DNA from: a virus
Direction: 5' to 3' (one strand)
Virus record (IMG/VR): IMGVR_UViG_3300025508_000006
Location: 1-64,000 of that record
DNA length: 64,000 nucleotides
Each line of letters opens with the position of its first letter. Position 1 is the stretch's first letter. Shown here one piece after another: positions 148 through 16,879 of this stretch. The notes under the pieces were generated by a model. That model made no database searches and was not told the DNA's origin. It worked only from the letters and a program-made list of their open reading frames with translations. Position numbers and translations under genes: made by a program.

Positions 148-175
148 TTGACAACCAGCACCAGTATGTTATAAT
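148..175 (+). promoter_or_regulatory. sigma70-type early promoter
   Basis: TTGACA-16 nt-TATAAT with extended -10 TG, intergenic. Confidence 0.75.
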
Positions 176-207: not shown

Positions 208-504
208 ATGAAGTCATTTAAGACACATCTCGAAGAATCCGCCAAAGTAAAGTGGATTAAAGTTGCTGACGGATACGCGAATAAAAAGATGGTGTACAAA
301 CACGTAACTTCTGATCGTATGTATGAAATACGTTTATCTGGTGCTGATTCTATGAAATTTAATAAAGATGGCAGTCAGAAAGTGTTGCCTACAGTCTTTG
401 ATAAGCATCCAGCAACATATAGTCCAAGATATCCTGTTACCGGATATAAGAATGTTGCTACAGCGAAAGCAGAAGTTGAGAGATGGATTGCCGATCATGA
501 ATAA
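208..504 (+). CDS. hypothetical protein with capsid-targeting-like N-terminus
   Basis: Starts MKSFKTHLEE, resembling T4 internal-protein signals (MKTYQEFIAE / MKTFKEF). Confidence 0.7.
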   Translation: MKSFKTHLEESAKVKWIKVADGYANKKMVYKHVTSDRMYEIRLSGADSMKFNKDGSQKVLPTVFDKHPATYSPRYPVTGYKNVATAKAEVERWIADHE

Positions 505-1726
505 TTTTAACGAGTTCATTACAGAAGCGGCACAAAAGAACACCCATATGACTCACATCGAAGATAAGGTGATCTACGGTGGTGCTGATGGAACTCGTCA
601 AGCAATCAATGCTCTTCGTGAGTTAAGAGATATGCTTGGCGGTAAGAAAGAAGGTTCTGTATCAGTCAAGTGGGACGGTGCACCAGCAGTATTTGCCGGT
701 ACTGATCCCTCTGACGGTAAGTTCTTTGTTGCTAAGAAAGGCATCTTCAATAAGAATCCAAAGATATACAAGACTGATGCTGACATCGATGACGATACGT
801 CTGGCGATCTCAATGACAAACTAAAACTTGCATTGAAGTATTTACCTGAACTTGGTATTAAAGGAGTCATTCAAGGTGACTTTCTATACAAGCGTTCTGA
901 ATTAAAGAAGAAGAAGATCGGCACAGAATCGTATCTCACCTTTCACCCTAACACAATCGTGTATGCAGTACCCGTAAAACAATCTAAAGAACTACTTGCT
1001 TCTAAAATCGGCATTGTATGGCACACTACATATACAGGTAGTTCTTTTGAAACTATGAGCGCATCATACGGTGTTGATGTAAACAAACTGAAGAAGTCAA
1101 CTAATGTCTGGTCACAGGACGCTATCTTGCGTGATGTGTCTAATGCAACGATGACTAAAAAAGAAACGGATGAAGTAAATGAAACTCTATCACAAATTGG
1201 CAAACTTTTTAACCAAATCTCTGGAAGCACTCTTCGCGTATTATCCGCCAACCCAGGACTTGCAGGTACTATCGAAACCTTTAATAACACCTACGTTAGA
1301 CGAGGAGAAGTCATCGGAGACTCCAAAAAGCACGCCGAAAAACTCATCGCCTACATCAACCAAAAGTACCAAAAAGAAATCGACAAGCGTAGCACCGAAA
1401 AAGGCAAAGGCGCCCAAAAAGCGAAGCGCGACGAAATCCTCAAGTTCTTCAGCAAAGAAAACAAAATAAGTCTCATTAAGATGTTTGAATTGCAGAAATT
1501 GATTGTTTTAGTTAAATTAAAACTTATAAATAACCTTAATAGATTAAGTAATATTGGTGCGTTTGTTAAAACTAAGAACGGATACAAGACTACTGGTCAA
1601 GAAGGTTATGTTGCAATAGACACACTTGGTGGTGATGCGGTGAAACTAGTTGATCGTATGGAGTTTTCATACAACAACTTTTCACCTGATATATTAAAAG
1701 GATGGGATAAACCAAAGGGTAAATAA
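497..1726 (+). CDS. putative ligase-fold (RNA ligase-like) nucleotidyltransferase, DUF6267-like, with capsid-targeting-like N-terminus
   Basis: Likely start ATG 497 (MNNFNEFITE). Motifs SVKWDG (KxDG), IQGDF, EGYV and AVKLV occur in ligase order. Confidence 0.6.
   Translation: MNNFNEFITEAAQKNTHMTHIEDKVIYGGADGTRQAINALRELRDMLGGKKEGSVSVKWDGAPAVFAGTDPSDGKFFVAKKGIFNKNPKIYKTDADIDDDTSGDLNDKLKLALKYLPELGIKGVIQGDFLYKRSELKKKKIGTESYLTFHPNTIVYAVPVKQSKELLASKIGIVWHTTYTGSSFETMSASYGVDVNKLKKSTNVWSQDAILRDVSNATMTKKETDEVNETLSQIGKLFNQISGSTLRVLSANPGLAGTIETFNNTYVRRGEVIGDSKKHAEKLIAYINQKYQKEIDKRSTEKGKGAQKAKRDEILKFFSKENKISLIKMFELQKLIVLVKLKLINNLNRLSNIGAFVKTKNGYKTTGQEGYVAIDTLGGDAVKLVDRMEFSYNNFSPDILKGWDKPKGK
1179..1469 (+). 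CDS. candidate overprinted Lys/Ser/Pro/Thr-rich basic protein (+1 frame inside 497..1726)
   Basis: 96-codon ORF coinciding with a strong shift of the host gene's third positions to C/A that reverts at its stop. Confidence 0.5.
   Translation: MKLYHKLANFLTKSLEALFAYYPPTQDLQVLSKPLITPTLDEEKSSETPKSTPKNSSPTSTKSTKKKSTSVAPKKAKAPKKRSATKSSSSSAKKTK
1525..1532 (+). promoter_or_regulatory. T4-type late promoter
   Basis: TATAAATA about 200 nt upstream of ORF 1728. Confidence 0.55.
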
Positions 1727-1727
1727 G

Positions 1728-2192
1728 ATGGCAGATAAACCATTATCGTTTAAAGATTTCTTATCGGTCGACTACACTCAGACGGGTGACGGTCAATTGG
1801 CGAAGAATGCAAAGAAACGCAAAACAGATGACGTTACCGGAAACACCGGTGAAGGCACTGACGAAGCACTCGACTTTCAACAGAGACGTGCTCGTGGTCG
1901 CTCAATGAAAAAGAACAAAGCAAAGATAGCGATGGGTCGTAGACGTGCCGCTAAGAAAACTGCTAGTCAAGACGTTCTTAAAAAACGTGCCCGCAAAGGC
2001 GCGATAAGTCAACTATTCAAAAAATTCTCTAAGGGTGTATCGAAATCGGACATCCCTGCTTCACGCCGTCAAGAGATCGAGAAGCGTATCGAGAAAATGA
2101 AATCAAAAGTAGATATGATTGCTCGAAAGAACTTACCTGCTATTCGTAAATTAGAGAAAGATCGACGGTCTGGTGGTAATAAAACAAAATGA
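1728..2192 (+). CDS. highly basic hypothetical protein, possible internal head/DNA-binding protein
   Basis: Lys/Arg-rich; N-terminal LSFKDFL resembles the targeting peptide. Confidence 0.65.
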   Translation: MADKPLSFKDFLSVDYTQTGDGQLAKNAKKRKTDDVTGNTGEGTDEALDFQQRRARGRSMKKNKAKIAMGRRRAAKKTASQDVLKKRARKGAISQLFKKFSKGVSKSDIPASRRQEIEKRIEKMKSKVDMIARKNLPAIRKLEKDRRSGGNKTK

Positions 2193-3436
2193 TTCCTTCA
2201 TTTAAACAGTATCTCGTAGAAGAGAACCGTGAAGTGTTCTTCACATTCGGTCGTATGAATCCTCCTACGATCGGACACGGCAAACTACTGTCAGTACTAT
2301 CTACTAAAGCAGGCAAGAATCCCTGGTTCGCTTATGTCTCACAATCACAAAACGCAAAGAAAGATCCCTTAACCTACGATCAGAAAGTGAAGCACGTTCG
2401 CAAGATGTTTCCTAAGTTTGGTCGTAATGTAATGCTTGATAAGAAAGTACGTACAGTGTTTGATATTGCAGTGATACTATTCGATCAAGGATTCAATCGC
2501 ATTACAATGGTTGTTGGTTCTGACCGTGTAACAGAATTTAAGACTCTCCTTGACAAGTACAATGGTGAGAAAGCACGACACGGTTTCTATAACTTCGAAA
2601 AGATCATGGTTGTATCTGCGGGTGAACGTGATCCTGATGCCGAAGGTGTTGAAGGTATGTCTGCATCTAAGCAACGCGAGAATGCCAAGAACAATGATTT
2701 CACATCATTCTCTCAAGGCGTTCCTAAGACAATGAACACACGAGATGCAAAGCGTCTGTTCAATGATGTACGTGGTGGGATGGGACTCAAAGAAACAACT
2801 ACATTTAGAAACCACATTGAACTTGAATCAGTCTCAGAGACACGAGAGAAATTTGTTCAAGGCGAGTTGTTCAATCTTACTGACAAAGTTATTATCAGCG
2901 AGTCTGGTAAGACAGGATACATTCAAACTATTGGTACTAACTATGTTATCGTAGCATTAGATGAAGGTGGTATTACTCGCCAATGGATCGAATCAGTCGA
3001 GTTAGCAGAAGTTCCTACTACTCAGATGATTGACAAGATTAAATCATCTACTGTATCTAAGAAGCGATATCAGGCAGCACTCAAAATACTAAAAGATGTT
3101 GTCGCTCGTAAGAAGAAAGAAGCGAGTGGTAAACCCATGCGTCACGGTATCGAATACTACGCTGGACAAATCGCTAAACAGTATGATATCAATCCTCGAG
3201 TTCTTGCTACTATGCACGAGACTAATGTTCCTGGATGGGGAACACCAGAAGCAACTAAGAAAGCGAAGAAGTATGTCCCTGGTCAGAATGAAGCGAAGGG
3301 TGACGAAGTTGCCATAGCAAGAGATGTTATCGACCAAGAACTTCAGACAGACAAGATTAAACATGACCGTATTCTTGATCGTGCGAGACTAAACCGCGCT
3401 AGACGCAAGAATAAACTAACAAATCCAAAAGTATAA
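2189..3436 (+). CDS. HIGH-superfamily (cytidylyltransferase-like) nucleotidyltransferase with C-terminal extensions
   Basis: FTFGRMNPPTIGH, VVGSDR and SAGERDPD..GMSASK motifs; N-terminus MIPSFKQYLVEE. Confidence 0.8.
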   Translation: MIPSFKQYLVEENREVFFTFGRMNPPTIGHGKLLSVLSTKAGKNPWFAYVSQSQNAKKDPLTYDQKVKHVRKMFPKFGRNVMLDKKVRTVFDIAVILFDQGFNRITMVVGSDRVTEFKTLLDKYNGEKARHGFYNFEKIMVVSAGERDPDAEGVEGMSASKQRENAKNNDFTSFSQGVPKTMNTRDAKRLFNDVRGGMGLKETTTFRNHIELESVSETREKFVQGELFNLTDKVIISESGKTGYIQTIGTNYVIVALDEGGITRQWIESVELAEVPTTQMIDKIKSSTVSKKRYQAALKILKDVVARKKKEASGKPMRHGIEYYAGQIAKQYDINPRVLATMHETNVPGWGTPEATKKAKKYVPGQNEAKGDEVAIARDVIDQELQTDKIKHDRILDRARLNRARRKNKLTNPKV

Positions 3437-3439
3437 ATA
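3432..3439 (+). promoter_or_regulatory. T4-type late promoter
   Basis: TATAAATA immediately before ATG 3446. Confidence 0.8.
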
Positions 3440-3445
3440 GATTCT

Positions 3446-5587
3446 ATGAAAACATTTAATGCGCTATCAGAAGAAGTAACTCAAAAGCAACTCAATGATG
3501 TTGAGAAGTTTGCGGATCGTATTCTCGCCAAGTTTAATGTAGACATTGAATTTACTCGCCACTTCGCGGATCGTATGAATGATGATCGAAACAAACCCGC
3601 AGTTAGTGTTGCAGAGTTACAGCAGATATTTAAGAAGATTGCAAGAAAGAAAGCGAAGGATATAAAACAGAATCCAGACAGTGAAGCGGTCATAAAGGAT
3701 ATTCAAAAAGACTTGAACTTGCCTGTGGTTATACGTTATAATAGAAACAAAGAAGAGTTTGAGGTTACTACAAAGACTATCATGCGCAAAAAAGATTTTA
3801 AGACTAGCAGTAAAGTAATCACTACAGAGAAAACTTTGACACCTGCTGAGATAAAGAAGCGAGAAGAAATCGCTAAAGCGATCGAGAAGGATTCACCTGG
3901 TATGTCCATGGCAAAGAAGATGGCAATCGCGACCGCGACCGCGAAGCGTGTTGCTGAAGCAAAAAAGATGAAAGACGACCCTTGTTGGAAAGATCACGAG
4001 ATGGTTGGAACTAAAACAAAAAATGGTAAGACAGTACCTAACTGTGTGCCCAAAGAAGATAAAGGAATTGATATGCCCTCGGAGTCAACAAAGGAATACG
4101 GTAAGTCTCAGGCAGCGATTGCTCGTAAGCGTCAACAGGCAGCAATGCGTCCTGGTGAGATGGACAAGTTAAAGCGTCTCAAAGATATGCTCAGGAATGC
4201 TAATAATAAAGTTGGTGTTGTTAAAAAAGAATCTGTTGATGAAGCATTATCTCCATCATACAAAAACAAGTATATCGGTAAAGACAAAGCGTCCTTACAG
4301 AAGACTCGTAACTCTTTCTTGTCTCAGATTGACGATCTCATTAAGTTCAAGAAGAAGACTACCAAGGATTCCGAAGTAGTTAAACTTCAAGATTTGCTCA
4401 AGCAAGTTGACCATGCACTTAAAGGTGTTAAAGAAAGCAAGAAACCAGTATCACAGATGACTCCTGCCGAGAAGAAAGCAGATGCAGAGAGACGTAAAGA
4501 ATACAAGGCGTATCAAAAGTCAAAGCGTGAGTCAATTGAAGAAGCGGTTGAAGATTGGACAGTCACCGTTACAAAACCTGTCAACAAATTAAAGAAAGGT
4601 GCGGCACAAAAAGTTAAAGCACGTTCTGCATTTGAAGCAATTAACAAAGCAGTGAAACTATGGGGCGATCCTGCTCTTAAAGCGGCACCAATGAATTCGT
4701 TTAGTGTTACTAAAGAGTCGGTTGAACTTGAAGAGAAGATGAAAGATAAACCATACGAAAAACAAATCGGTATGGGTGATTCTCGTAGCGAAAAAGAAAT
4801 TCGTGATCAGATTAGTGGTTTGAGCGATGGCACATTAAAGAAATGGGCAAGTAAACCAGCAGGACGTTTTGGTTCTAAGATTGCTAAATTACAAGATAAA
4901 GTGATCGCTGCCGAGATGAAAAAGCGTGGTCTTAAAGAATCTGTCGAAGAAGCGAAAGAACCTTCACTAAAAAGCACAGATTATCCCAAAGGCACTTCTC
5001 AGTCTGCACAGGCATTCAAAGATAGATTCGCCAAAAAGAAGAAAGTACCTGCTCTGAAAAGCACAGATTATCCCAAAGGCACTTCAATGTCTGCAACTGC
5101 TTGGAAGAAAAAGAATGAATTTGTCGAAGCGATTATGGCCAAAGATGCTGTCGAAGAAGCAAGACAAATGAAAGACCCTAAGAAAGACTCTATGGTCACT
5201 AAGAGTGGTAAGACTATCGTAATCGACAAGTCTAAGGAATCAGAGTACCTCAAGAAAGGTTGGACTCTTGCTGAGAATGAGACTGTCGAAGAGTCTAAGA
5301 ACTTCTTTAAGTTTCGCGAGTCGTTGAACGAGAAGTATCAACACTATCATACTACATTCTCTAATGCTGTACAAACTGCTGAGAAGCAAGCAGAGAAGCA
5401 AGGTTATGAAGTCGATCAAGATGATTGGTTCAACAAGATTGCAACTGGTCCTAAGAAACCTTCTGAGGGTAAGACTAATAGTTATATCATTAAGTTGTTG
5501 AAGAATGGTAAACCTACGAAGAAGACATTAGCAATACAAGTCTTCAATATGGGTAAGAAGTACGAACTTAATATGTACATCTCATAA
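3446..5587 (+). CDS. modular Lys-rich putative internal head polyprotein
   Basis: MKTFNALSEE start; short modules separated by ESVDE/ESIEE/ESVELEE/ESVEE/ETVEE/ESLNE linkers. Confidence 0.65.
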   Translation: MKTFNALSEEVTQKQLNDVEKFADRILAKFNVDIEFTRHFADRMNDDRNKPAVSVAELQQIFKKIARKKAKDIKQNPDSEAVIKDIQKDLNLPVVIRYNRNKEEFEVTTKTIMRKKDFKTSSKVITTEKTLTPAEIKKREEIAKAIEKDSPGMSMAKKMAIATATAKRVAEAKKMKDDPCWKDHEMVGTKTKNGKTVPNCVPKEDKGIDMPSESTKEYGKSQAAIARKRQQAAMRPGEMDKLKRLKDMLRNANNKVGVVKKESVDEALSPSYKNKYIGKDKASLQKTRNSFLSQIDDLIKFKKKTTKDSEVVKLQDLLKQVDHALKGVKESKKPVSQMTPAEKKADAERRKEYKAYQKSKRESIEEAVEDWTVTVTKPVNKLKKGAAQKVKARSAFEAINKAVKLWGDPALKAAPMNSFSVTKESVELEEKMKDKPYEKQIGMGDSRSEKEIRDQISGLSDGTLKKWASKPAGRFGSKIAKLQDKVIAAEMKKRGLKESVEEAKEPSLKSTDYPKGTSQSAQAFKDRFAKKKKVPALKSTDYPKGTSMSATAWKKKNEFVEAIMAKDAVEEARQMKDPKKDSMVTKSGKTIVIDKSKESEYLKKGWTLAENETVEESKNFFKFRESLNEKYQHYHTTFSNAVQTAEKQAEKQGYEVDQDDWFNKIATGPKKPSEGKTNSYIIKLLKNGKPTKKTLAIQVFNMGKKYELNMYIS
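4969..5085 (+). repeat. intragenic direct repeat (LKSTDYPKGTS x2)
   Basis: aaaagcacagattatcccaaaggcacttc occurs twice, 87 nt apart. Confidence 0.9.
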
Positions 5588-5919
5588 TGAAAAAGTTTCG
5601 TGATTTCATAAACGAAGATTGCACCTGTGAAGAACTAGAAATCACAGAGGCGGAATATCAGGGTAAATCAGTTACACTAAATAACCCTTTTAGACTGCCT
5701 TCTGGTAATAAGAAGAAGTTTGGCGTATACGTTACCAATAAGAAAGGTAATATAGTTAAAGTTACGTTTGGTGATCCTAACATGGAGATCAAACGAGACG
5801 ACCCCGAGAGACGCAAGTCTTTCAGAGCGCGGCACAATTGTGCTGATAAAAAGGACAAAACCACTCCGGGTTACTGGAGTTGCTACCAATGGAGAGCGTC
5901 TGCGAAAGTAGATAACTAA
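5587..5919 (+). CDS. hypothetical protein with capsid-targeting-like N-terminus
   Basis: MKKFRDFINE; VTFGDP...RKSFRARHNC...GYWSC motif. Confidence 0.75.
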   Translation: MKKFRDFINEDCTCEELEITEAEYQGKSVTLNNPFRLPSGNKKKFGVYVTNKKGNIVKVTFGDPNMEIKRDDPERRKSFRARHNCADKKDKTTPGYWSCYQWRASAKVDN

Positions 5920-5924
5920 ATTGT

Positions 5925-6224
5925 ATGGGAAATTTGACTAACGCAGATCGTCTGGGTCGTATAGAAGATAAAATAGATCAGATGTCAGAAGCAATTATCG
6001 CGCTCGCAAGGGTGCAAGAAAAGGTGTCGGATCTGGAAAATCGAAGACAAGAATCGCATGAGCGTATGAATCAGCATTCAAAAAAATTAGACGACATCGA
6101 CACAAAAGTAACAAGGTTGATGGAGAAAGTAAATAATATTCAGATAGTCGGTTTAGCGGCGGGCGGTCTGATAACAACAATAATTTTAGCACTACTAACT
6201 GGGCAGATAGTAATCGGCCAATAA
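5925..6224 (+). CDS. coiled-coil protein with C-terminal transmembrane helix
   Basis: Heptad-like N-terminus followed by IVGLAAGGLITTIILALL. Confidence 0.7.
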   Translation: MGNLTNADRLGRIEDKIDQMSEAIIALARVQEKVSDLENRRQESHERMNQHSKKLDDIDTKVTRLMEKVNNIQIVGLAAGGLITTIILALLTGQIVIGQ

Positions 6225-6243
6225 GATAAACCTGGAGAACAAC

Positions 6244-7272
6244 ATGAACCCCGAGTACATTAAAAGCATCGCCCAACTATGGCAACAAGTGCAAGAAGGC
6301 GAAAAGAAGAAATTAGATCCCGTAGATGATAAAGAGAACGATAAGAAGTTCAAGGATCGCAAAGACAAAGACATTGACAACGATGGCGATGTTGATTCAT
6401 CTGATGAGTTTTTGCACAAGAGACGTAAAGCAATCGATGATAAGATTGATGGCGGTAAGAAACCTGCTAAGGAATCTTGCGGCGATGACGATAAGAAGGT
6501 GAAGAAAGAGTCGGACGAAGATATGACTCCTTGTCCTGATTGCGAAGGTTCTACTGATAATCACAGTCCTGAATGTCCTAAAGCAGACAAAGGTAAAAAA
6601 GAAGTAGAAGAGGGCAAAGTGAAAGATCAAATGGTTGCAGATTCCGAGAAGATGTCTAAGAAAGACTTCATTAAGAAGTACGGAAAAGAAATGGCAGATG
6701 ATCTTTATGAAGCAAAGGAATATTCCTACACTGTTGTTCATGCTAAGAAAGGTAAGGTAGTAGTTACTGCCCCTACTTCATATGATGCGGCACAGAAAGC
6801 GGCAAAGCAATGGAAACTGAAGTCTACTGGTGGTGTTGATGCGTATCTTATGAAAGAATCTAATACTGTTACTCATGCTGACCACGGTTATGGTGAAATT
6901 CTGCAACGTACTGATGAAGGCGTAGATGTTATGTTTGAACATGGCGTTGAAATGGGTATGAGCGAAGCAACTCTGACATTCCTAGAGACTGTTGGCGCTA
7001 CTACACTAGCAAAGAAAGCAACTCAAGTTGCTGGCGGTGGAGAGAAGCATGGCGAAACTCAGTCTAAGGGCGAGAAAGACTTTGCTGATAAGCATGACAA
7101 AGATGATCCTAAGTTAGCGGCAGATGATTCTGCTGGACACGAAGATGCTACTAAAGCAGGACGTGCAGTTAAGTCACAGTCTGGTACTCGCGGCAACGAA
7201 CCTCGTATCGGTGACAAGACTATTGTAAATCCTGTTAAGGGTGCTGTAACTAAAACTACTGGTAAGGAATAA
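6244..7272 (+). CDS. modular charged protein with EF-hand-like loop, possible internal head polyprotein
   Basis: DIDNDGDVDSSDE, CPDC and VEE/LYE/LxE linkers; GGAG SD upstream. Confidence 0.7.
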   Translation: MNPEYIKSIAQLWQQVQEGEKKKLDPVDDKENDKKFKDRKDKDIDNDGDVDSSDEFLHKRRKAIDDKIDGGKKPAKESCGDDDKKVKKESDEDMTPCPDCEGSTDNHSPECPKADKGKKEVEEGKVKDQMVADSEKMSKKDFIKKYGKEMADDLYEAKEYSYTVVHAKKGKVVVTAPTSYDAAQKAAKQWKLKSTGGVDAYLMKESNTVTHADHGYGEILQRTDEGVDVMFEHGVEMGMSEATLTFLETVGATTLAKKATQVAGGGEKHGETQSKGEKDFADKHDKDDPKLAADDSAGHEDATKAGRAVKSQSGTRGNEPRIGDKTIVNPVKGAVTKTTGKE

Positions 7273-7276
7273 GATT

Positions 7277-7540
7277 ATGCCTATTAGAGGTCCTAAGAAT
7301 GCTACTCCAACTCCAATCGGTTGGGTTTCACCAAAAGGTGAATTGCTAAAGAGTCAACGTATTACTCCTCAGCAGATCGCAGAGTTTCATGGTGATGTTC
7401 CATCAACTGCAACTCAGTTAAACGAAGCACCTGTTCACCAGACTTCATTGAATTCCATGACTGATGTGGAACTAGAAGTAACTTCACTGCATTATGATAT
7501 TGATTTGTCTTCGGGTCTTACTGAAGAGTTGGAAGATTAA
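7277..7540 (+). CDS. hypothetical protein
   Basis: Tightly packed ORF with AAGGA SD. Confidence 0.7.
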   Translation: MPIRGPKNATPTPIGWVSPKGELLKSQRITPQQIAEFHGDVPSTATQLNEAPVHQTSLNSMTDVELEVTSLHYDIDLSSGLTEELED

Positions 7541-7541
7541 T

Positions 7542-7859: not shown

Positions 7860-7888
7860 AAGTCTATATACTATACAACCTATAGAAT

Positions 7889-8266: not shown

Positions 8267-8850
8267 GTTTAGCAAGTAAAGCAGGCGATCTGCTCTATAC
8301 CTTTCGATTCTTGAAGATGCTGACAACACCTTGGGATGAGACTGATGCATTTAAGTTAGGTCTTATTGATGAGAACGGTAAGCGAATCAAGAGCGAGAAA
8401 GTAGATTCCTCTGAAAAGAAAGTGGCGTTAGGTCCTTTCGTTCGTCTAGTGTTTAATGTCAAAAGAGCATTGGGCAAGTTGCCGGGTGGTAAGACTACTG
8501 TTGGTTCTTATGCGGCAGCACTCTTTCTACTCAAAGAACATTACAGTGTAGGTGAAAAGAATCTAACAAGAATATGTGTCGAAGCGGGTATTGATCCACT
8601 TGATATGATAGCAGAAGACCATGCTTGGTACGTACTTGAGAACAACCAATTATCACCAGGAATATATCGCGTAAAAGGTGATAAACTTCTTGGCGAAGGA
8701 CTCGAAGATGCAGTTCGTGCTAAAGACCAAATTCGTATACTTGACGAATCATTTCCAGTCGGTGATGTGTTCGGCATGAACGTGTATGAAGCAGTGCACC
8801 TAACTACTAACAAAATGGTGTATATCACACTAGGAGAAATCTACAAATGA
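8263..8850 (+). CDS. hypothetical protein typical of T4-like phages
   Basis: YTFRFLKMLTTPW..AFKLGLIDENG; ATGA overlap with upstream gene. Confidence 0.75.
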   Translation: MSLASKAGDLLYTFRFLKMLTTPWDETDAFKLGLIDENGKRIKSEKVDSSEKKVALGPFVRLVFNVKRALGKLPGGKTTVGSYAAALFLLKEHYSVGEKNLTRICVEAGIDPLDMIAEDHAWYVLENNQLSPGIYRVKGDKLLGEGLEDAVRAKDQIRILDESFPVGDVFGMNVYEAVHLTTNKMVYITLGEIYK

Positions 8851-9023
8851 AATCGTTCAAAGAATTTATGGTAGAAGAACCTACAGTCTCCACCGGTCCC
8901 GGTATCGCAGGCACAAGTCCTGGCGATCCTGCTGACTGGACATACGGAAAGAAGAAAAAGCGTAAACCCCTAACTCGTTCTTTTATAGAGATCATGGGCA
9001 AGCGTAAAAAACTTATCAAATAA
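8847..9023 (+). CDS. 58-aa basic protein with capsid-targeting-like N-terminus (not in ORF track)
   Basis: MKSFKEFMVEEPTVSTGPGIAG...KRKKLIK; AGGAG SD; ATGA overlap. Confidence 0.8.
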   Translation: MKSFKEFMVEEPTVSTGPGIAGTSPGDPADWTYGKKKKRKPLTRSFIEIMGKRKKLIK

Positions 9024-9036
9024 GTCTCAAAATAGA

Positions 9037-9065
9037 TTGACCTTTCTGTGAATGTGGTGTATAAT
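9037..9065 (+). promoter_or_regulatory. sigma70-type promoter for nrdAB
   Basis: TTGACC-17-TATAAT. Confidence 0.75.
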
Positions 9066-9118
9066 AGCACTATATAATTCACTAGACCCAAAAATAAAAT
9101 AACAGATGAGCAGAATAA

Positions 9119-11107
9119 ATGCCAGTAAAAATTGACAAGAAGCGTGACGCATTACTAAAGGATTACGCAGTAGGTATGTTGAAAGACTTCTACTTAAATG
9201 ATGATGAAAATTCTCCGCAAGAAGCATTCTCTAGGGCAGCAACTGCTTGGTCAAAATACGAAGGACAATTAGACGAAGAACTGGCACAACGTCTCTATGA
9301 TTTCGTATCAAAGAAGTGGTTCATGTTTGCTAGTCCTGTACTATCTAATGCTCCTACTGAGAAGAAGAAAGATAAAGGTATGCCTATCTCATGCTTTCTC
9401 ACTTATGTTCCAGATACATTAGAAGGACTAATCGGTCATACTTCAGAGTTGAGATGGTTATCAGTCTATGGTGGTGGAGTTGGTGGTCATTGGAGTGATG
9501 TGCGTACGGTATCTGATGTAGCACCTGGTCCTATGCCATTCTTACATACTGTCGATGCTGACATGATTGCATATAAGCAAGGTAAGACTCGCAAGGGTTC
9601 TTATGCCGCATATATGGATGTAAGTCACCCTGACATTATAGAGTTTTTGAATATGCGGGTGCCTACTGGTGACGTACAACGCAAAGCATTGAACTTGCAT
9701 AATGCTATTAACATTGACGACGATTTTATGGTTGCCGTTAAAAACAATCTCTCTTATGATCTACGTGATCCAAAAGACGATGCTGTCAAAGAGAGTATCA
9801 ACGCCCGTAAGTTGTGGGAACGTATTCTCGAAACCCGTTTCAGAACTGGTGAACCTTACTTAAACTTTATTGACACTGCAAACAACGATTTACCTCAACC
9901 ATTAAAAGATTTAGGATTGAAGATTAACGGTTCTAATCTATGCAATGAGATTCATCTTCCAACTAGCGCAGAACGTACCGCTGTTTGTTGTCTATCTTCA
10001 TTAAATCTGGAATACTACGATGATTGGAAAGATACGACTATTGTTCGTGACCTTATCCGTATGCTTGATAACGTCTTGCAGTACTTTATCGACGAAGCAC
10101 CTAACACAATTGAACGTGCAAAGTACAGTGCCGCACGAGAAAGATCGCTCGGACTTGGAGCGATGGGATTCCACAGTCTTTTGCAACGACATGGTGTTGC
10201 ATGGGAATCACAGGCAGCGCGGGAAATTAACGATGCTGTGTTTAGACACATTAATACCGAGGCGATTCTGGAAACTGAACTCTTGGCACAAGAACGTGGT
10301 GAATATCTCGATGGTAAGGGAAGTGGAAGGAGAAACAGTCATCTCATGGCAGTGGCACCCAATGCTTCGAGTGGAGTAATACTGAGTACTAGTCCTTCTA
10401 TTGAACCGACCAAAGCAAACGCATACACACACCGAACTAGAGCAGGATCGTTTCTTGTTAAAAATCCGTACTTGATTCAACTATTACAAGAGAAGGGTGA
10501 AGATAACGAGTCTAACTGGACAAGCATTATCACTAACAAAGGTTCTGTTCAGCACTTGCCGTTTCTTACAGAAGGCGAAAAGTCTATATACAAGACTGCT
10601 CAAGAACTAGATCAGAACTGGGTAGTTCAACACGCTGGTGAACGTCAGAAGTATATTTGTCAGGGTCAAAGTGTTAACCTATTCTTTCCTGCAGGCGCTC
10701 CTAAGTCGTATGTAAACAAAGTTCATATCAATGCATGGAAACTAGGACTGAAGGGACTGTACTATCTTCGTACAGAGGCAAAGTCTCGTGCAGAGAATGT
10801 ATCAGAGAAAGTAGAAAGAGTAGCACTAGAAGGTGATAAGCGAAGCGTAGTATATTCTAAACCAGATTGTCCATTCTGTCAACTGGCAAAAGAAGAAATG
10901 AGACTGCGTGGTATTCCATATGATGAAGTTAATCTAACTGAGGTAGGTAAGACAGCGGCAGAAGTGACTGGTCGTAAAGATGTTAAAACAGTTCCACAGA
11001 TTTATATCGGTGGTGAATATATTGGTGGGTATGAAGCACTTATGTCATACCTAGATAAAGAAGTTGAAAACGATGGCGATGACGAATGTCTCGCTTGTTC
11101 AGGATAA
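9119..11107 (+). CDS. nrdA: class I ribonucleotide reductase alpha subunit with fused glutaredoxin domain
   Basis: ISCF, SNLCNEI, VAPNASS, KGLYYLR, C-terminal CLAC; CPFC..TVPQIYIGG before the tail. Confidence 0.95.
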   Translation: MPVKIDKKRDALLKDYAVGMLKDFYLNDDENSPQEAFSRAATAWSKYEGQLDEELAQRLYDFVSKKWFMFASPVLSNAPTEKKKDKGMPISCFLTYVPDTLEGLIGHTSELRWLSVYGGGVGGHWSDVRTVSDVAPGPMPFLHTVDADMIAYKQGKTRKGSYAAYMDVSHPDIIEFLNMRVPTGDVQRKALNLHNAINIDDDFMVAVKNNLSYDLRDPKDDAVKESINARKLWERILETRFRTGEPYLNFIDTANNDLPQPLKDLGLKINGSNLCNEIHLPTSAERTAVCCLSSLNLEYYDDWKDTTIVRDLIRMLDNVLQYFIDEAPNTIERAKYSAARERSLGLGAMGFHSLLQRHGVAWESQAAREINDAVFRHINTEAILETELLAQERGEYLDGKGSGRRNSHLMAVAPNASSGVILSTSPSIEPTKANAYTHRTRAGSFLVKNPYLIQLLQEKGEDNESNWTSIITNKGSVQHLPFLTEGEKSIYKTAQELDQNWVVQHAGERQKYICQGQSVNLFFPAGAPKSYVNKVHINAWKLGLKGLYYLRTEAKSRAENVSEKVERVALEGDKRSVVYSKPDCPFCQLAKEEMRLRGIPYDEVNLTEVGKTAAEVTGRKDVKTVPQIYIGGEYIGGYEALMSYLDKEVENDGDDECLACSG

Positions 11108-11119
11108 GAGAGTAGATTA

Positions 11120-12157
11120 ATGGCATTATTAGAATTCAGTAAAAGTTACAAACCATTCGCCTACCCATGGGCAGTGGACTTAGTGAAGAAGCACGAAGAA
11201 ATTCACTGGGTGGAAGATGAAGCGGAGTTAAGCGAAGACGTACAAGATTGGAAAACAAAGTTAAGTGAAGAAGAGAAGGAGTTTGTTACACAGATTCTAC
11301 GTCTCTTTACACAGTCAGATGTTCAAGTAGGCGAGAACTACCATGAGTTGTTGATCCCTAAGTTTAAGAACAACGAGATCCGCAATATGCTATCGTCCTT
11401 TGCTAATCGCGAAGGTGTGCATCAACGTGCATATGCTCTATTGAACGATACACTTGGATTGCCAGACGAAGACTTCCACAAGTTTCTTGAATACAAAGCG
11501 ATGGCAGAGAAACTTGACTTCATGAAAGAAGGCAGCATCAATACACATACAGGTCTTGCATTAGTATTGGCACAGTCAGTATTCAACGAAGGTATGAGTC
11601 TGTTCTCTTCGTTCGTTATGCTATTGAACTTCCAGCGTTTTGGTAAGATGAAAGGCATGGGTACTATTGTTGAGTGGTCTATCCGCGATGAAACTCTACA
11701 CGTACAAGGCAACGCTAAGTTGTTCCGTGAGTTCTGCGAAGAGCATCCGCGTATTGTCAATGATGAATTGAAGTCGAAGATTTATCAGATGGCAAAGAAT
11801 GCTGTTAAGTTAGAAGATAAGTTCATTGACTTGGCATACAACAATCACGAGATCGAAGGTCTAGCAAAAGAAGATGTTAAGCAATACATACGACATATTG
11901 CTGATCGACGTTTGTTACAACTAGGCATGAAACCTAATTTCAAAGTTAAAGAGAATCCATTACCTTGGTTAGACTGGGTATTGAATGGTGCTTCACACGA
12001 CAACTTCTTCGAGAAGCGCGTTACAGAATACTCGGTGAATGGCATGGATGGTGATTGGGGATGGGATGAAGATGAAGAACCTATCGTTTGTGGATTAGAT
12101 GGAACGTTTCATCAATCCATCACGTGTGGATTAGATGGAACAGGACGTCCTGCATGA
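11120..12157 (+). CDS. nrdB: class I ribonucleotide reductase beta subunit
   Basis: FTQSD, EGVHQRAY, EG..LF.SF, RDETLH, NFFEKRV. Confidence 0.95.
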   Translation: MALLEFSKSYKPFAYPWAVDLVKKHEEIHWVEDEAELSEDVQDWKTKLSEEEKEFVTQILRLFTQSDVQVGENYHELLIPKFKNNEIRNMLSSFANREGVHQRAYALLNDTLGLPDEDFHKFLEYKAMAEKLDFMKEGSINTHTGLALVLAQSVFNEGMSLFSSFVMLLNFQRFGKMKGMGTIVEWSIRDETLHVQGNAKLFREFCEEHPRIVNDELKSKIYQMAKNAVKLEDKFIDLAYNNHEIEGLAKEDVKQYIRHIADRRLLQLGMKPNFKVKENPLPWLDWVLNGASHDNFFEKRVTEYSVNGMDGDWGWDEDEEPIVCGLDGTFHQSITCGLDGTGRPA

Positions 12158-12303
12158 TAGAAGATACTCGTAGATTTATGACTGAATGTCCTGTGTGTGA
12201 TAGTAACTGTTTTGTCGATGTGTTAAACGTCGATGAGGCAGTGATCTACTGTCCCATGTGTGGTACTGAAGCAGAAGTGGAAGAGGTTTTCATAGAAGAC
12301 TAA
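12154..12303 (+). CDS. small zinc-ribbon protein
   Basis: CPVC...CPMC; ATGA overlap with nrdB stop; AGGA SD. Confidence 0.7.
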   Translation: MIEDTRRFMTECPVCDSNCFVDVLNVDEAVIYCPMCGTEAEVEEVFIED

Positions 12304-12333
12304 ATAGTGTTATCTTCAATCAAGGTAACACTA
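12299..12333 (+). promoter_or_regulatory. late-promoter variant plus RBS-sequestering hairpin
   Basis: ACTAAATA followed by tagtgttatctt-caatc-aaggtaacacta, ending 1 nt before ATG 12335. Confidence 0.55.
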
Positions 12334-12334
12334 A

Positions 12335-13954
12335 ATGAAACCCACTATAGCATTGTATGAGGGTCATGATACTAATCTAACAGTACATGATCCTAATACC
12401 GACTCGTTCTACATATATGAATTTGAACGTGTTTCTGGTATTAAACATCATAACACAAAACTTCGTGATGAAGCATCTACTTCAGATAATGTTCTTTATC
12501 TCAAAAAAATTCTGAATCATCTTGAAGAAGTTCATGGTATAAAAAATGACTTCAAAACATTAATCTTCAAACCCATTTGGTTTGATGTTTCGTTCATTGA
12601 TCGCACTTGCATCAATGCAGACGAAGAAGTTCAACAATCCAAGGTTCCCGATCACCACGACTATCATGCGTGGAGCGCATATGGTCAGGCACCAGAATCC
12701 TTCGAGAACACCGCGTGTTTAACGTATGATGGTTGGGGTGATAACACTTCATTCAAGTACTCATGTTTCGAAGGTATCAATCGTCACTCAGTTCAATCCA
12801 TGAGACACAACTTCTCGATGGTCTATACTGCTGTCGCACACTCACTCAAAATACTACACGGCACTCTGGACCTTGATCTTCCGGGTAAACTGATGGGATT
12901 ATCCGCATATGGAGAATTGAATGATGAATGGGTAGATATAATGAAAGACGCCATTTCATCTAATTGGTGGAGTGAAGATGTAAGGGACCGTCATTGGAAC
13001 GACGAAAATAATCCATTGCTTATAATGAGAAATCGTATTGGTACTTGCATTCAAACTAATAATTATAAATTAAAACTGAAGAATAATAAAGCGTTCTCTC
13101 TTGCTAGGTCTGCGCAGGTTGCGTTCGAAGAGGGTATCGTAAAAACTATTAGAGAAGAGTTTCTTGACAAGATCGAAGCACACGATAACAATCTATTAAT
13201 ATCTGGTGGTAGTGCATTAAACGTTCTTGCTAACGAAGCAATCAAACGTGCGTTTCCTCACATTAATATATTCATCCCACCAAACTGTCATGACGGTGGT
13301 CTAAGTTTTGGTATGCTATACGAACATCTAAAGACATCTAAGAAGTACAATGTCACACAATCTGGTCCAAGAATATTCGACTACAAATATGTCGATCCAA
13401 TGATTAAACTGTATGGCGCAAAGAAAGTGGATACTAATGATATTGCTACCCTACTTAAAGAGCAGAAAATAGTAGGAATGGTGATTGGTAACATGGAAGT
13501 GGGACCTAGAGCGTTAGGCAATCGTTCTATACTATGTGATGCATCTAATCCTAAGATGAAAGACACACTCAATGCTAGAGTGAAGTTTCGAGAGTGGTTC
13601 AGACCGTTCGCTCCTATATGCAGAAAGGAAGATGCACCTAAGTATTTTTACTCTCCTAACTTCGATAACATGGAATGTATGCAATTCGTCGCAGATGTGT
13701 TGCCAGAGTATCAAACTAAACTGTTCTCTATAACACACTATGATGACACTGCCAGACTACAGGTGGTGACGGAGGAGAGCAATGCCGCAATCTATGACAT
13801 ACTGACAGCGTTCGATGGAGTACTAATAAACACTTCCTTTAATGTTCAAGGTAAACCTATTCTAAATACAATTGATGAAGCATTTCATGTTTTACAAAAT
13901 ACTGGATTAGATCATATAGTGGTAGAGTATGAAAATGAATATTGGTTATTTTAG
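12335..13954 (+). CDS. O-carbamoyltransferase (NodU/CmcH/TobZ family)
   Basis: GHD, HHDYHA, DGWGD, GKLMGLSAYG, SGGSALN, EVGPRALGNRS, RPFAP, NTSFN. Confidence 0.92.
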   Translation: MKPTIALYEGHDTNLTVHDPNTDSFYIYEFERVSGIKHHNTKLRDEASTSDNVLYLKKILNHLEEVHGIKNDFKTLIFKPIWFDVSFIDRTCINADEEVQQSKVPDHHDYHAWSAYGQAPESFENTACLTYDGWGDNTSFKYSCFEGINRHSVQSMRHNFSMVYTAVAHSLKILHGTLDLDLPGKLMGLSAYGELNDEWVDIMKDAISSNWWSEDVRDRHWNDENNPLLIMRNRIGTCIQTNNYKLKLKNNKAFSLARSAQVAFEEGIVKTIREEFLDKIEAHDNNLLISGGSALNVLANEAIKRAFPHINIFIPPNCHDGGLSFGMLYEHLKTSKKYNVTQSGPRIFDYKYVDPMIKLYGAKKVDTNDIATLLKEQKIVGMVIGNMEVGPRALGNRSILCDASNPKMKDTLNARVKFREWFRPFAPICRKEDAPKYFYSPNFDNMECMQFVADVLPEYQTKLFSITHYDDTARLQVVTEESNAAIYDILTAFDGVLINTSFNVQGKPILNTIDEAFHVLQNTGLDHIVVEYENEYWLF

Positions 13955-13967
13955 GGAATTATAACAA

Positions 13968-14423
13968 ATGTGGAATATGAACGAAAGTGTATTCGAACCT
14001 GACGAAGAATTCCTTAAAGATTATGTAGGATTTGTGTATCGTATCACTGAGATAGATACCGGTAAGATGTATATAGGAAAGAAGTTCTTCTGGAAACCTA
14101 AGACACTGCCTAAGAACTCTGTACGTAAAAGAAAGATAAAAATGAAAGTTCCTTCGGACTGGCAGAAGTATTACGGTTCGAGTGAACATTTACTTGAGTC
14201 GATCAAGAGAACTGGTGTTGATAACTATCACCGCGAAGTTCTAAAGTTATGTAGAACAAAAGGCGAATGCTCCTACTATGAGGCGAAGTTACAATTTGAA
14301 TACGATGTTCTGCTGGACGAACAATACTATAATGCCTTCATCGGTTGCAAAATACACGCAAAGCACTTACCCAAACCTGAGGTGTCTATGCGTCCCGCAG
14401 AACCTTGGCACAATAGACCTTAA
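13968..14423 (+). CDS. GIY-YIG nuclease
   Basis: GFVYRIT...KMYIGKK, YYGSS, conserved E and YYN. Confidence 0.85.
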   Translation: MWNMNESVFEPDEEFLKDYVGFVYRITEIDTGKMYIGKKFFWKPKTLPKNSVRKRKIKMKVPSDWQKYYGSSEHLLESIKRTGVDNYHREVLKLCRTKGECSYYEAKLQFEYDVLLDEQYYNAFIGCKIHAKHLPKPEVSMRPAEPWHNRP

Positions 14424-14426
14424 ACT

Positions 14427-16175
14427 ATGAGAAATCTAATCGCCGCCAATTGGGGTCATGACGCCGCACTATGTTTCTGGAATGATGTTACAAAAACATT
14501 TCATACTATTGAGATAGAAAAATTAGAAGGTATAAAACACTATAGAGGTCACTATCGTAAGGACGAGGAACTAGAAATTCTCAAACGGTGTGCTAAGATA
14601 GCAGAAGAAGAGTTTGGCATACCTAATGATTATCATTGCATTATTCGTGGCAATGTATTAAATGATATTAAGATGCATCAAATAGAGACGAGCACTGGTC
14701 GTATCACAGACAATATTATTATGAATGATATGATGCTCGACCCTGATAATATTAATGCAGTATTTAATACTAAGCATATTGATGTCACATACCGTCATCA
14801 CGAAGCACATGCTTGGAATGGGTTTGCTCCTTCGGGATTTGACAAAGCAATCATACTTACTATGGATGGTGGTGGCAACGATGGGTTTACTCATTTGTTC
14901 ACTGCTGAGAATCCTGATAGACCTCTGACAAGTCGCACTAAACTACACGGAGTTCGAGCACATGGAAGGGACTATACACAAGCATGCCTATGGTCATTAT
15001 GGAGCATAATGCAAAGTACTGATTGTGGATTAGATGTTGCGGGCAAAGCAATGGGTGCATCATCATACGGTAATACAGAAAGTGATGCCTTTTCAACTGC
15101 CCAAAAACTTTATCTACGAAGTACAGAGACTTGGAAAAACTTTAGTCCAGGTAGAATGTTATACGAAAGGCATTACAATCAAACATTGAAAGACGGGACT
15201 AATAGTAAGACTAATTTTATTAGAGCGTTCAGTCCTTCGCCCGAACTATATAATCCTTATAAACTATTCGTGGACGAGACTGATTGGCAAACAGAATGTG
15301 ATTTGGCAAGAGGCATTCAAGATGCATTCGTTAAAGATGCGCTGGCATGGTTTGTAGGTATACTGAACCAACAAAAGATAAACCTAGATGACTATGACAG
15401 AAATGTGGTGTTCTCTGGTGGGTCTGCTTTAAATGTATTATTCAATGACGTGTTGCAGAAAAAGTTAAATATAAATCTATTCGTCCCACCTAATCCGGCA
15501 GACCAAGGTATACCTTACGGTATGCTTGTGCAATGGATGGTTGCGAATGAAATGAAATACTCTCGTGAAGAAACAACATACTCGGGTCAAAAGATACAAG
15601 ATTTAGATGAACTGCCGCACTATATAGATTTATATGCTGGTGAGGGAGCAACAGTCTCAGAGATAGCAAGTATTCTGAAAGACGATAAGATCATTGGATT
15701 CGTACAAGGTGGCATGGAAGTAGGTGCGAGAGCATTAGGCAATCGTTCTATACTTGCTGATCCCAAGGGCGAAGATAAGAAAGACAAAGTTAATGTAGTG
15801 AAGAGACGCGAAGCATATCGTCCGTTCGCACCAGTATGTAGACTAGAAGATGCTGAGACTTACTTCGATTCGATTCGTTATGACAATCTATCTTATATGA
15901 ATTTTGCGATAAAGACTCGTGAAGAACATATAGATAAGTTAAGAGCAGTTACTCATGTTGACGGTACAGCAAGAGTACAAACGGTCACGCGAGAACAGAA
16001 CGAAATATTATACGACTTATTAACAGAATTTGATGGTGTATTATTGAACACTTCTTTCAATGTGAAAGGATCTCCAATACTAAATACACTTAAAGAAGCA
16101 TTCTATATGCTGGACGAAACCACACTCGATCATCTGGTAGTTGTAGATGACAATCAATTAATATGGATTTTTTAA
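14427..16175 (+). CDS. second O-carbamoyltransferase (NodU/CmcH family)
   Basis: GHD, HHEAHA, DGGGND, GKAMG, GARALGNRS, RPFAP, HVDGTARVQ, NTSFN. Confidence 0.92.
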   Translation: MRNLIAANWGHDAALCFWNDVTKTFHTIEIEKLEGIKHYRGHYRKDEELEILKRCAKIAEEEFGIPNDYHCIIRGNVLNDIKMHQIETSTGRITDNIIMNDMMLDPDNINAVFNTKHIDVTYRHHEAHAWNGFAPSGFDKAIILTMDGGGNDGFTHLFTAENPDRPLTSRTKLHGVRAHGRDYTQACLWSLWSIMQSTDCGLDVAGKAMGASSYGNTESDAFSTAQKLYLRSTETWKNFSPGRMLYERHYNQTLKDGTNSKTNFIRAFSPSPELYNPYKLFVDETDWQTECDLARGIQDAFVKDALAWFVGILNQQKINLDDYDRNVVFSGGSALNVLFNDVLQKKLNINLFVPPNPADQGIPYGMLVQWMVANEMKYSREETTYSGQKIQDLDELPHYIDLYAGEGATVSEIASILKDDKIIGFVQGGMEVGARALGNRSILADPKGEDKKDKVNVVKRREAYRPFAPVCRLEDAETYFDSIRYDNLSYMNFAIKTREEHIDKLRAVTHVDGTARVQTVTREQNEILYDLLTEFDGVLLNTSFNVKGSPILNTLKEAFYMLDETTLDHLVVVDDNQLIWIF

Positions 16176-16879
16176 TGTTAAAATTTAAACAGTACATCAA
16201 TGAACAAGCAGAACTAGACCTAATCAACGAAGGCGTAAATGATCCTGCAATCTTTAAAGCAGTGTTTCTTGCTGGTGGTCCTGGTAGTGGAAAGTCATTC
16301 ATCGTTGGTAAAACTGGACTGGGTAGTTTTGGATTTCGTGTAGTCAACTCTGATGATGCATTTGAAAACGCTATGAAGAAAGCAGGCATGGAGATGAATC
16401 CAGATAACATCTTCTCTGTTAAAGGTCAAGAACTCCGTGGTAAAGCAACTAAGTTGACTGCCGCTAAACAAGAGATGTATCTTAAAGGTCGTCTCGGTAT
16501 TGTTATTGATGGTACTGGTAAAGATTCTGATAAGATTAAACAGCAACGTGCGAAACTAGAAAAGATGGGATACGATACTGCAATCATTGTAGTGAACACA
16601 AACTTAGAAACCGCTGTTGATCGTGACGCACAACGCCAACGCTCTATTGGTAAGAAGATGCTAACCCCGATGTGGCAGGCAGTGCAAGATAATATCGGAA
16701 CATACCAACAGATGTTTGGTCAAGAGAATACATTCATTGTTGATAACAGTGAAGGCAAAGACTTCAAGAAAGAAACTATGGCAGCATACAAGGGAATTGG
16801 TGCATGGTCTAAGAAACCAGTTAAAGATTCTCGTGCTAAGAAGTGGATTAAATCTGAGTTAAAAAATAAGACTAGATAA
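16175..16879 (+). CDS. P-loop kinase (zeta-toxin/polynucleotide-kinase-like) with capsid-targeting-like N-terminus
   Basis: Likely start ATG 16175 (MLKFKQYINE); GGPGSGKS, VNSDD, IVIDGT, R..R lid. Confidence 0.8.
   Translation: MLKFKQYINEQAELDLINEGVNDPAIFKAVFLAGGPGSGKSFIVGKTGLGSFGFRVVNSDDAFENAMKKAGMEMNPDNIFSVKGQELRGKATKLTAAKQEMYLKGRLGIVIDGTGKDSDKIKQQRAKLEKMGYDTAIIVVNTNLETAVDRDAQRQRSIGKKMLTPMWQAVQDNIGTYQQMFGQENTFIVDNSEGKDFKKETMAAYKGIGAWSKKPVKDSRAKKWIKSELKNKTR

Follow-up and report, generated by a model that had tools for sequence, protein, structure and literature searches.

A probable T4-type capsid targeting sequence shared by three enzymes and several basic proteins of an uncultured T4-like phage

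Introduction

The internal proteins of phage T4 are basic and lie embedded in the packaged DNA (PMC9026906, PMC3012670). The products of ipII and ipIII, as read from NC_000866, both begin with MKTYQEFIAE, and that of ipI begins with MKTFKEFTS...ITE. Genetic work in T4 has assigned positions 4 and 7 of this tag to targeting and positions 8 and 10 to processing, and the internal-protein loci of T-even phages are hypervariable (PMC9026906). Here, we describe a comparable N-terminus in the first 64,000 nucleotides (hereafter, the window) of an IMG/VR contig of 116 kb (record IMGVR_UViG_3300025508_000006). The contig comes from an uncultured marine T4-like phage, with a CheckV completeness of about 67%. 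Its closest relatives with an annotation are members of the Kyanoviridae or cluster with them (C48C1, Stenotrophomonas phage DLP6, OM43 phage Melnitz, SAR11 phage HTVC008M and hundreds of cyanophages). The N-terminus is shared by several basic proteins, three enzymes among them, and we consider it probable that it is a T4-type capsid targeting sequence (CTS) which also serves as a propeptide for the prohead protease.

Few viruses of the ocean are as abundant as the T4-like phages that infect cyanobacteria and SAR11. In T4 itself, the ADP-ribosyltransferase Alt travels in the head, undergoes trimming by gp21 and is injected with the DNA, as we propose for the enzymes described here; Alt differs from them in not using an IPIII-type tag. 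Engineered CTS fusions to beta-galactosidase, to a nuclease or to green fluorescent protein have established that the tag alone loads large folded proteins; such fusions are man-made, whereas the arrangement described here is apparently natural and ancient. The Dar proteins of P1, the ejection proteins of phiKZ and SPN3US, and the virion RNA polymerase also reach the head via the assembly core; after processing by the prohead protease, they are ejected and act before phage genes are expressed. Their targeting determinants and the phage lineages concerned differ from those considered here.

The locus resembles the T4 internal-protein system in several respects: in both, ten N-terminal residues of the form M-K-x-(F/Y)-x-x-F-I-x-E precede a small residue; the genome encodes a gp21-type protease; the cargo proteins are basic and mutually unrelated; the promoters are of the early type; and the tag is the only part common to an otherwise hypervariable cargo. 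The hypervariability of the T-even loci is mirrored by the varied tagged cargo found at the loci of relatives. On the other hand, T4 has three small non-enzymatic cargo proteins, whereas the tag is found here also on proteins of 25-80 kDa, including three enzymes of 25-46 kDa. Moreover, and unlike in T4, it is carried by a conserved three-enzyme module in phages of SAR11, OM43, cyanobacteria and Stenotrophomonas, which is known from sequence, and position 7 and the spacing are looser. The mechanism itself is the one familiar from T4. The novelty lies in finding it put to natural use, in marine T4-like phages, for a conserved module of enzymes and for a large variable cargo, and in the explanation that it offers for virion proteome detections that had been left unexplained.

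A shared N-terminus far beyond chance

The original prediction held that seven otherwise unrelated open reading frames (ORFs), located between positions 208 and 16879, start with M-x-x-F-x-x-(F/Y/H/L)-(I/L/M)-x-E, and that a partial match lies at 1728. All seven starts were read at these positions (Table 1), and the partial match was found as MADKPLSFKDFLSVD. The motif is absent, as had also been stated, from the N-termini predicted for the products of replication, metabolic and baseplate genes. This pattern (hereafter, the fitted pattern) is built from the seven starts themselves, and its enrichment test is therefore post hoc. Over all six frames of the 116-kb genome, it matches eight Met positions, of which seven coincide with the tagged gene starts and the eighth (35350), an internal Met, was discarded. 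Among the 119 predicted proteins, it matches seven starts and none of the 711 internal Met (0/711), for about 0.14 expected either from any-position rates or from shuffles, which bears out the excess over shuffled N-termini that the prediction implied. Because this first test is post hoc, we fixed a second, a priori pattern, ^M..[FY]..[FY][IL].E, from T4 ipII and ipIII alone. It matches the starts at 497, 5587 and 16175, where 0.0066 matches are expected (Poisson P 5e-8). The tag is real and far beyond chance.

The conserved positions of the phage tag are those that serve targeting (4 and 7) and processing (8 and 10) in T4, and an (I/L/M)-x-E site of the processing type is present in all seven tags. 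All nine tagged proteins are basic, with an isoelectric point (pI) of 9.3-10.8, while the other 110 proteins have a median of 5.4, with 8% of them above 9 (Mann-Whitney P 2e-6).

At the conserved residues, the codons differ from gene to gene among the tagged genes while the residues are kept, and selection therefore acts on the peptide. This observation bears directly on the view that the tag has nothing to do with the capsid and reflects a translation-initiation or mRNA preference, or a generic amphipathic start, the virion detections described below being then contamination by abundant proteins. Such a view can draw on the A/T-rich codons (AAA, TTT) that are common after start codons, and contamination is raised in the proteome papers themselves. 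It fits poorly with codons that vary under kept residues, with a constant spacing of Phe, aromatic, I/L and Glu around positions that are free to vary, and with the absence of the motif from 110 other genes, highly expressed structural ones included. We regard it as highly improbable.

A further tag-like start in the window, at 7889 (MNTMKLFETLDE), was rejected, its C48C1 orthologue being without any resemblance to the tag.

Tagged proteins in the virions of cultured relatives

The virion proteomes of cultured relatives are the strongest evidence for reading the tag as a capsid targeting sequence. In purified virions of S-SM1, a "cytidylyltransferase" (T4-GC190) was detected with 25 peptides, together with its neighbours T4-GC1453, 1454, 1455, 425 and 426 (Sullivan et al. 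2010, PMC3037559). We found that this protein, SSM1_190, begins with MKKFSAFLNE. Likewise, ORF91 of S-SCSM1, called NMNAT, is a virion protein (PMC9602691); it begins with MKSFLQFLKE and is 40% identical to the product of the tagged gene at 2189. More generally, the 2189 protein is homologous, with 36-41% identity over the catalytic domain, to the NMNAT/cytidylyltransferase-like proteins that accompany kinases among the virion proteins of S-SM1, S-SCSM1, S-CBWM1 and S-CREM2, and that mass spectrometry has detected repeatedly in purified particles.

In S-CREM2, six "non-structural" virion proteins were left unexplained by the authors (PMC10665884). Read from OR473000, the SAM lyase gp6 begins with MKDFDSFLEE, the kinase gp14 with (V)KRFDAFLTE, the transferase gp154 with MKNFSSFLTE and gp13 with MKDLHSFLTE, and the Cas9-like gp12 has RFASFMAE close to its annotated start. 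The region of gp6, the 755-residue protein-kinase-like gp14, gp13 and gp12 spans 3837-13331 of OR473000, and its neighbours that are not virion proteins (Dam, an EcoRI-like protein and a glycosylase) are without the tag. A scan of the whole genome returned the tag at the annotated starts of gp6, gp14 and gp154 only, plus one weak match, the CP12 start MSNFTPYSE, which was not counted (Ser at position 8). The motif thus singles out exactly the unexplained "non-structural" virion proteins, which also speaks against a mere preference at translation starts.

When searched as a DNA pattern, the strict tag occurs once in S-SM1, at the transferase, and twice in S-SCSM1, at ORF91 and ORF30. Five of the six canonical tagged starts of S-SM1, S-SCSM1 and S-CREM2 are detected in virions (SSM1_190, ORF91, gp6, gp14 and gp154); with about 15-24% of all genes coding for virion proteins, a binomial estimate gives about 0.002 for at least five of six by chance. 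By comparison, the untagged DUF6267 protein of S-SM1 and the untagged DUF6267-transferase fusion of S-PM2 are not among the virion proteins reported for these phages.

No targeting signal for the virion-associated enzymes of cyanophages is described in the parts of the three reports available to us (PMC3037559, PMC9602691, PMC10665884), and a full-text literature search joining capsid targeting and cyanophages returned a T4 review only. We believe that the link between the tag and the published cyanophage virion proteins is new. The tag would explain why purified particles of cyanophages contain NMNAT-like transferases, kinases and a SAM lyase. The SAM lyase, an anti-restriction-type enzyme, appears to be a natural CTS cargo, since a T4-type tag is found on a published virion protein. 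A conserved tag with its protease site would moreover provide a rule at the level of the sequence for deciding whether a protein is cargo or contaminant, and would predict head cargo in any related genome or metagenome. The T4 internal-protein paradigm would then cover, beyond three small inhibitors, a natural enzyme cargo that is large and changes fast, including SAM lyase anti-defence activity and a module resembling RNA repair.

Head genes and conservation of the tag in relatives

The same contig encodes, outside the window, a gp21-type prohead protease (Peptidase_S77, PF03420, E 3.6e-44) together with the major capsid protein Gp23 (PF07068, E 3.6e-149), both found by profile search. A gene for a gp67-like acidic protein and a gene in the position of gp22 adjoin gp21/gp23; they are named from position and composition only. 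Directly upstream of gp21 lies a short gene whose basic product starts with a variant of the tag (Table 1). This shortened variant, F-x-E-I/L-x-E, is likewise found at the start of C48C1 CDS0092, of the Melnitz transferase and of SSM1_192, a virion protein of S-SM1.

The genes of the module are tagged also in the C48C1, DLP6, Melnitz and HTVC008M orthologues. Among 120 homologues of the kinase encoded at 16175 (59-100% identity), practically all carry x-x-F-x-x-(F/Y)-(L/I)-x-E directly before an invariant GVNDPAIFK core. For the transferase, 119 of 120 homologues have (S/T/N/D)F-x-x-(Y/F)-(L/I)-(V/I/F)-E-E (e.g., S/T-F-K-Q-Y-L-V-E-E) just before the first Rossmann strand, the exception being called from a later Met. 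The close homologues of the DUF6267 protein keep the tag in 103 of 120 cases, with Phe, the aromatic, I/L and Glu fixed and the intervening residues varying. When more diverse DUF6267 proteins are considered (150 representatives, 36-69% identity), about half are tagged and the rest start 2-6 residues before the conserved NxHxEHxED. Because the untagged members begin at the domain itself, the tag is a detachable appendage that lies outside the fold. In AlphaFold models, residues 1-8 of the DUF6267 protein are disordered, the overall predicted local distance difference test score (pLDDT) being 94, and so are residues 1-19 of the kinase (overall pLDDT 81).

A wider survey covered 80 related IMG/VR loci, amounting to 875 kb. 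It contains 114 ORF starts with F/Y at position 4, ILMV at position 8 and E at position 10, for 15.5 expected from independent position frequencies, and the fitted pattern is found at 212 of 7854 coding-strand Met against 5 of 1415 opposite-strand Met. The tagged proteins of this survey span dozens of unrelated families, one of which is a HAD-type DxDxT protein, and in the 114 tagged ORFs the residue that follows the tag (P1') is mostly Ala, Gly or Glu.

Promoters of the tagged genes

Perfect sigma-70 promoters precede the gene at 208, nrdA (9037) and 16972. Among the tagged genes, the late promoter sequence TATAAATA is found before 3446 only, and in the window as a whole it is not enriched (6 sites versus 5.3 expected). 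The transferase gene of S-CREM2 has a late promoter. We did not count the early promoters against packaging, because the T4 ip genes have the same arrangement: in NC_000866, ipI, ipII and ipIII have GTTTAC-type early promoters and no TATAAATA within 120 nt upstream.

Proposed loading pathway and competing explanations

The capsid-targeting function put forward in the original prediction is supported by the match to T4 ipII and ipIII, the gp21 and gp23 genes, the conservation and modularity of the tag in homologues, the basic charge of the tagged proteins and the virions of three relatives. In the pathway that we propose, the tag would dock the protein on the scaffolding core during head assembly; among its ten or so residues, position 4 is aromatic, position 7 is aromatic or hydrophobic, position 8 is I/L/M and position 10 is Glu. 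By analogy with T4, the gp21-type protease of the genome would then cut after (I/L/M)-x-E, and the mature basic protein would remain among the packaged DNA and probably exit with it into the host at infection. The cargo would consist of small basic proteins resembling T4 internal proteins (208, 5587 and 8847, perhaps also 1728 and the 68-residue protein beside gp21), of the 713-residue multi-site protein, and of three enzymes, i.e., the DUF6267 protein, a polynucleotide-kinase-like P-loop kinase and a HIGH-motif nucleotidyltransferase.

Several observations weigh against this reading or narrow it. In S-SCSM1, ORF30, which encodes 106 amino acids within the structural module, bears a canonical tag and is not among the detected virion proteins. 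Conversely, the virion proteins from the same module of S-SM1 include untagged ones; the tag is therefore not the sole route into the particle. The proteomes of the relatives contain no tagged DUF6267 protein and no tagged P-loop kinase of the present family; the precedent consists of the transferase, a different kinase and the SAM lyase. These detections come from three cultured relatives and not from this uncultured phage. Abundant soluble proteins can also co-purify with virions, and the authors of the proteome papers left the choice between packaging and contamination undecided (PMC9602691, PMC10665884). In the transferase family, 2-6 variable residues separate Met from Phe, a looser arrangement than in T4. 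The cleavage of the tag and the resulting new N-terminus in this phage group rest on the parallel with T4. Finally, with an early promoter, the enzymes are probably made in the cell as well, and need not act solely as injected cargo.

The same facts can be arranged differently. If the tagged proteins were scaffold accessories, like gp22, gp67 and gp68, they would enter the prohead core, be cut and be expelled before DNA packaging, and nothing would be delivered. The T4 core proteins are likewise substrates of gp21 (PMC9026906), the 713-residue protein has many internal LxE-type sites, and a tagged mini-protein of 68 residues stands beside gp21 within the head gene cluster, all of which such a role would accommodate. 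It would leave unaccounted for the tagged enzymes that are found in mature virions of relatives with 25, 19 and 21 peptides, and it would make the conserved catalytic motifs of three folded enzymes pointless; the basic charge suits a residence in packaged DNA. We therefore hold this role to be unlikely.

The position of the tag, which abuts the first strand of the transferase or the P-loop region of the kinase and could occlude the active site, lends some appeal to another idea, namely that it is a removable timing propeptide, which holds the enzymes in an inactive or mislocalised state until the head protease comes into action, their presence in virions being a by-product. Expression from an early promoter would also agree with this. 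Yet T4 gp21 is active in proheads only (PMC9026906), in the models the tag is a disordered tail that hangs free, and many tiny non-enzymatic basic proteins bear the same tag, so that we consider a timing device very unlikely.

The three enzymes and their module

The three enzyme assignments of the original prediction hold: the candidate ligase-fold protein is a DUF6267 protein in which the KxDG, EG and K motifs are invariant and whose model resembles RNA ligases, the HIGH enzyme is a cytidylyltransferase-like protein, and the third is a P-loop kinase whose top fold match is a bacterial polynucleotide kinase.

In the DUF6267 protein, K58-x-D60-G61, E369-G370 and K383, which correspond to ligase motifs I, IV and V, are invariant among 101 sequences (35-62% identity). 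Aligned with VIA-align, its model matches NgrRnl (5cot, Z 7.8 over 188 residues), Trl1 (6n0t, 7.7 over 205 residues), T4 Rnl2 (7.2), T4 Rnl1 (6.9) and REL1 (6.6); down to Z 6, every match that aligns over some 160 residues or more is a ligase, with all Z below 8. Foldseek against the PDB returned no significant match, and weak DNA-ligase matches at E of about 0.4. At the level of the sequence, phmmer and a 101-sequence profile run against PDB sequences retrieved no ligase, only spurious low-complexity matches. No membership in Rnl1-5 was detected by sequence, and Pfam assigns DUF6267 only. NCBIfam has no match for any tagged protein, and a literature search on DUF6267 found nothing. The modelled fold and the motifs together support the DUF6267 protein as a candidate covalent nucleotidyltransferase.

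The kinase matches Zeta_toxin (E 8e-10) and AAA_33 (E 1.6e-9), both above the cut-offs, and its Walker A GGPGSGKS is invariant in homologues. Its top Foldseek match is the kinase of Clostridium thermocellum Pnkp (E 5.5e-7, template modelling score (TM) 0.72-0.74), with T4 Pnk at TM 0.77 and with adenylate kinases and zeta toxin nearly equal. The transferase (2189) matches phrog_3041 (E 2.5e-63) and phrog_395 (E 3e-59), both annotated as 'cytidyltransferase', and reaches 19.5 bits for PF01467, below the 21-bit cut-off, close homologues scoring 21.8-26 bits. It carries FTFGRMNPPTIGHGKL, in accordance with the FGRxNPPTxGH motif of the PF01467 superfamily, i.e., an N-terminal Rossmann strand followed by (H/T)xGH. 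One homologue of the transferase has a weak ProQ-C-like RNA-binding domain.

The DUF6267, kinase and transferase genes form one module across marine T4-like phages. In HTVC008M, the kinase gene lies between the other two, and fusions of DUF6267 with the transferase exist (phrog_455, S-PM2). The S-PM2 fusion (LN828717, 2765-4540), a DUF6267 + cytidylyltransferase protein of 591 amino acids, begins directly at the DUF6267 domain and is untagged. Three loci of relatives (L084:9384-10004, L031:6330 and L042:7950) encode tagged proteins of about 200 amino acids with the HAD-type DxDxT motif FDIDDTLF, and the HTVC008M module contains, at 15308-15898, an NT5C-type nucleotidase (PF06941, E 5.7e-7). 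With these tagged HAD and NT5C proteins of relatives, a phosphatase therefore joins the set of ligase, kinase and transferase.

In phage RNA-repair modules (PMC7824862), a ligase is combined with a polynucleotide kinase, a HAD phosphatase and a nucleotidyltransferase. The tagged set is like these modules, and like the tRNA repair pair T4 Pnkp and Rnl1, in its KxDG lysine and putative RNA-ligase fold, its possibly Pnk-like P-loop kinase, its nucleotidyltransferase and the tagged HAD/NT5C phosphatases of relatives. It is unlike them in that the nucleotidyltransferase is of the HIGH class and not of the Pol-beta class, and in that DUF6267 falls outside Rnl1-5 by sequence; moreover, the T4 repair enzymes are made after infection and not packaged. 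The most likely job of the trio would be either the healing and sealing of nucleic-acid ends (RNA repair) or the supply of a nucleotide cofactor at the start of infection. The supply of NAD, proposed in the cyanophage papers, is as possible a role as RNA repair.

An injected enzyme kit is plausible, and the version of it devoted to RNA repair has some structural support from the models. A more specific and general proposal would be that the heads of marine T4-like phages, whose hosts include SAR11, OM43 and cyanobacteria, contain a ready-made, injected kit for the healing and sealing of RNA ends, composed of the three enzymes and, in some lineages, of a HAD phosphatase, with one tag loading all of it. 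Ahead of any phage gene expression, this kit would either mend tRNA or mRNA that host defences of the anticodon-nuclease type have cut, or replenish a nucleotide cofactor. We put this proposal forward tentatively, and in its full extent it is rather doubtful.

Individual tagged genes and neighbouring loci

The coordinates of the tagged genes, of the promoters and of the head genes are given in Table 1.

Table 1. Tagged genes and associated features, in positions of the window unless stated otherwise
Feature	Position	Strand	Tag or motif	Remarks
Sigma-70-type (early) promoter	148..175	+	TTGACA, 16-nt spacer, TATAAT	12/12 matches, TG extension; before the first tagged gene
98-aa basic protein	208..504	+	MKSFKTHLEE	mature form about 10 kDa, pI 9.6
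DUF6267 protein, 409 aa	497..1726	+	MNNFNEFITE	candidate RNA-ligase-fold covalent nucleotidyltransferase; PF19782, E 3e-103
154-aa very basic protein	1728..2192	+	PLSFKDFLSVD	pI 10.8; degenerate, shifted tag, Glu replaced
Cytidylyltransferase/NMNAT-like HIGH-motif nucleotidyltransferase, 415 aa	2189..3436	+	MIPSFKQYLVEE	tag abuts first Rossmann strand
T4-type late promoter	3432..3439	+	TATAAATA	just upstream of gene 3446
713-aa basic protein	3446..5587	+	MKTFNALSEE	tag variant; many internal (L/I/V)xE sites
110-aa conserved small basic protein	5587..5919	+	MKKFRDFINE	phrog_7595
58-aa Lys/Arg-rich mini-protein	8847..9023	+	MKSFKEFMVEE	T4-internal-protein-like; mature form 5.3 kDa, pI 10.4
P-loop kinase, 234 aa	16175..16879	+	MLKFKQYINE	second I-N-E site at residues 17-19, directly before GVNDPAIFK core
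68-aa basic protein	94398-94604 of the genome, outside the window		MRSFKEIRE	tag variant; in head gene cluster, between a 212-aa gene and gp21, directly upstream of gp21
gp21 + gp23 genes	94.6-97.7 kb of the contig, outside the window			profile matches

The 98-residue protein has Pfam matches below threshold only and no PHROG match. The start at 497 sits within a longer ORF beginning at 368, and homologues of the DUF6267 protein begin exactly at Met 497. For the kinase, another in-frame ATG lies at 16163, 12 nt upstream, which leaves its start slightly ambiguous.

Orthologues of the 1728 protein carry canonical tags in relatives (MLSFKQFVSE in C48C1, MLSFKDMLSE in IMG/VR loci). In T4, an Asp at position 10 of the tag permits targeting and prevents cleavage (PMC9026906). 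By this analogy, the 1728 protein, with its tag SFKDFLSVD, may be loaded uncut, or it may be a decaying copy. The 713-residue protein may, judging from its internal sites, be cut into several pieces; the virion protein ORF89 of S-SCSM1 begins with MDSKTFNSLSE, which resembles its start. Orthologues of the 5587 protein occur in HTVC008M and C48C1 (60-64% identity), the C48C1 tag being MKKFKQYIDE, and the C48C1 counterpart of the 8847 mini-protein begins with MKTFQEFMKQFEEE.

Upstream of the kinase gene, at 12335-16175, two paralogous carbamoyltransferase genes (12335-13954 and 14427-16175) flank a gene for a SegE-type GIY-YIG homing endonuclease (13968-14423; PF19835, E 2.4e-35). From its sequence, this arrangement looks like the insertion of a homing endonuclease between duplicated metabolic genes.

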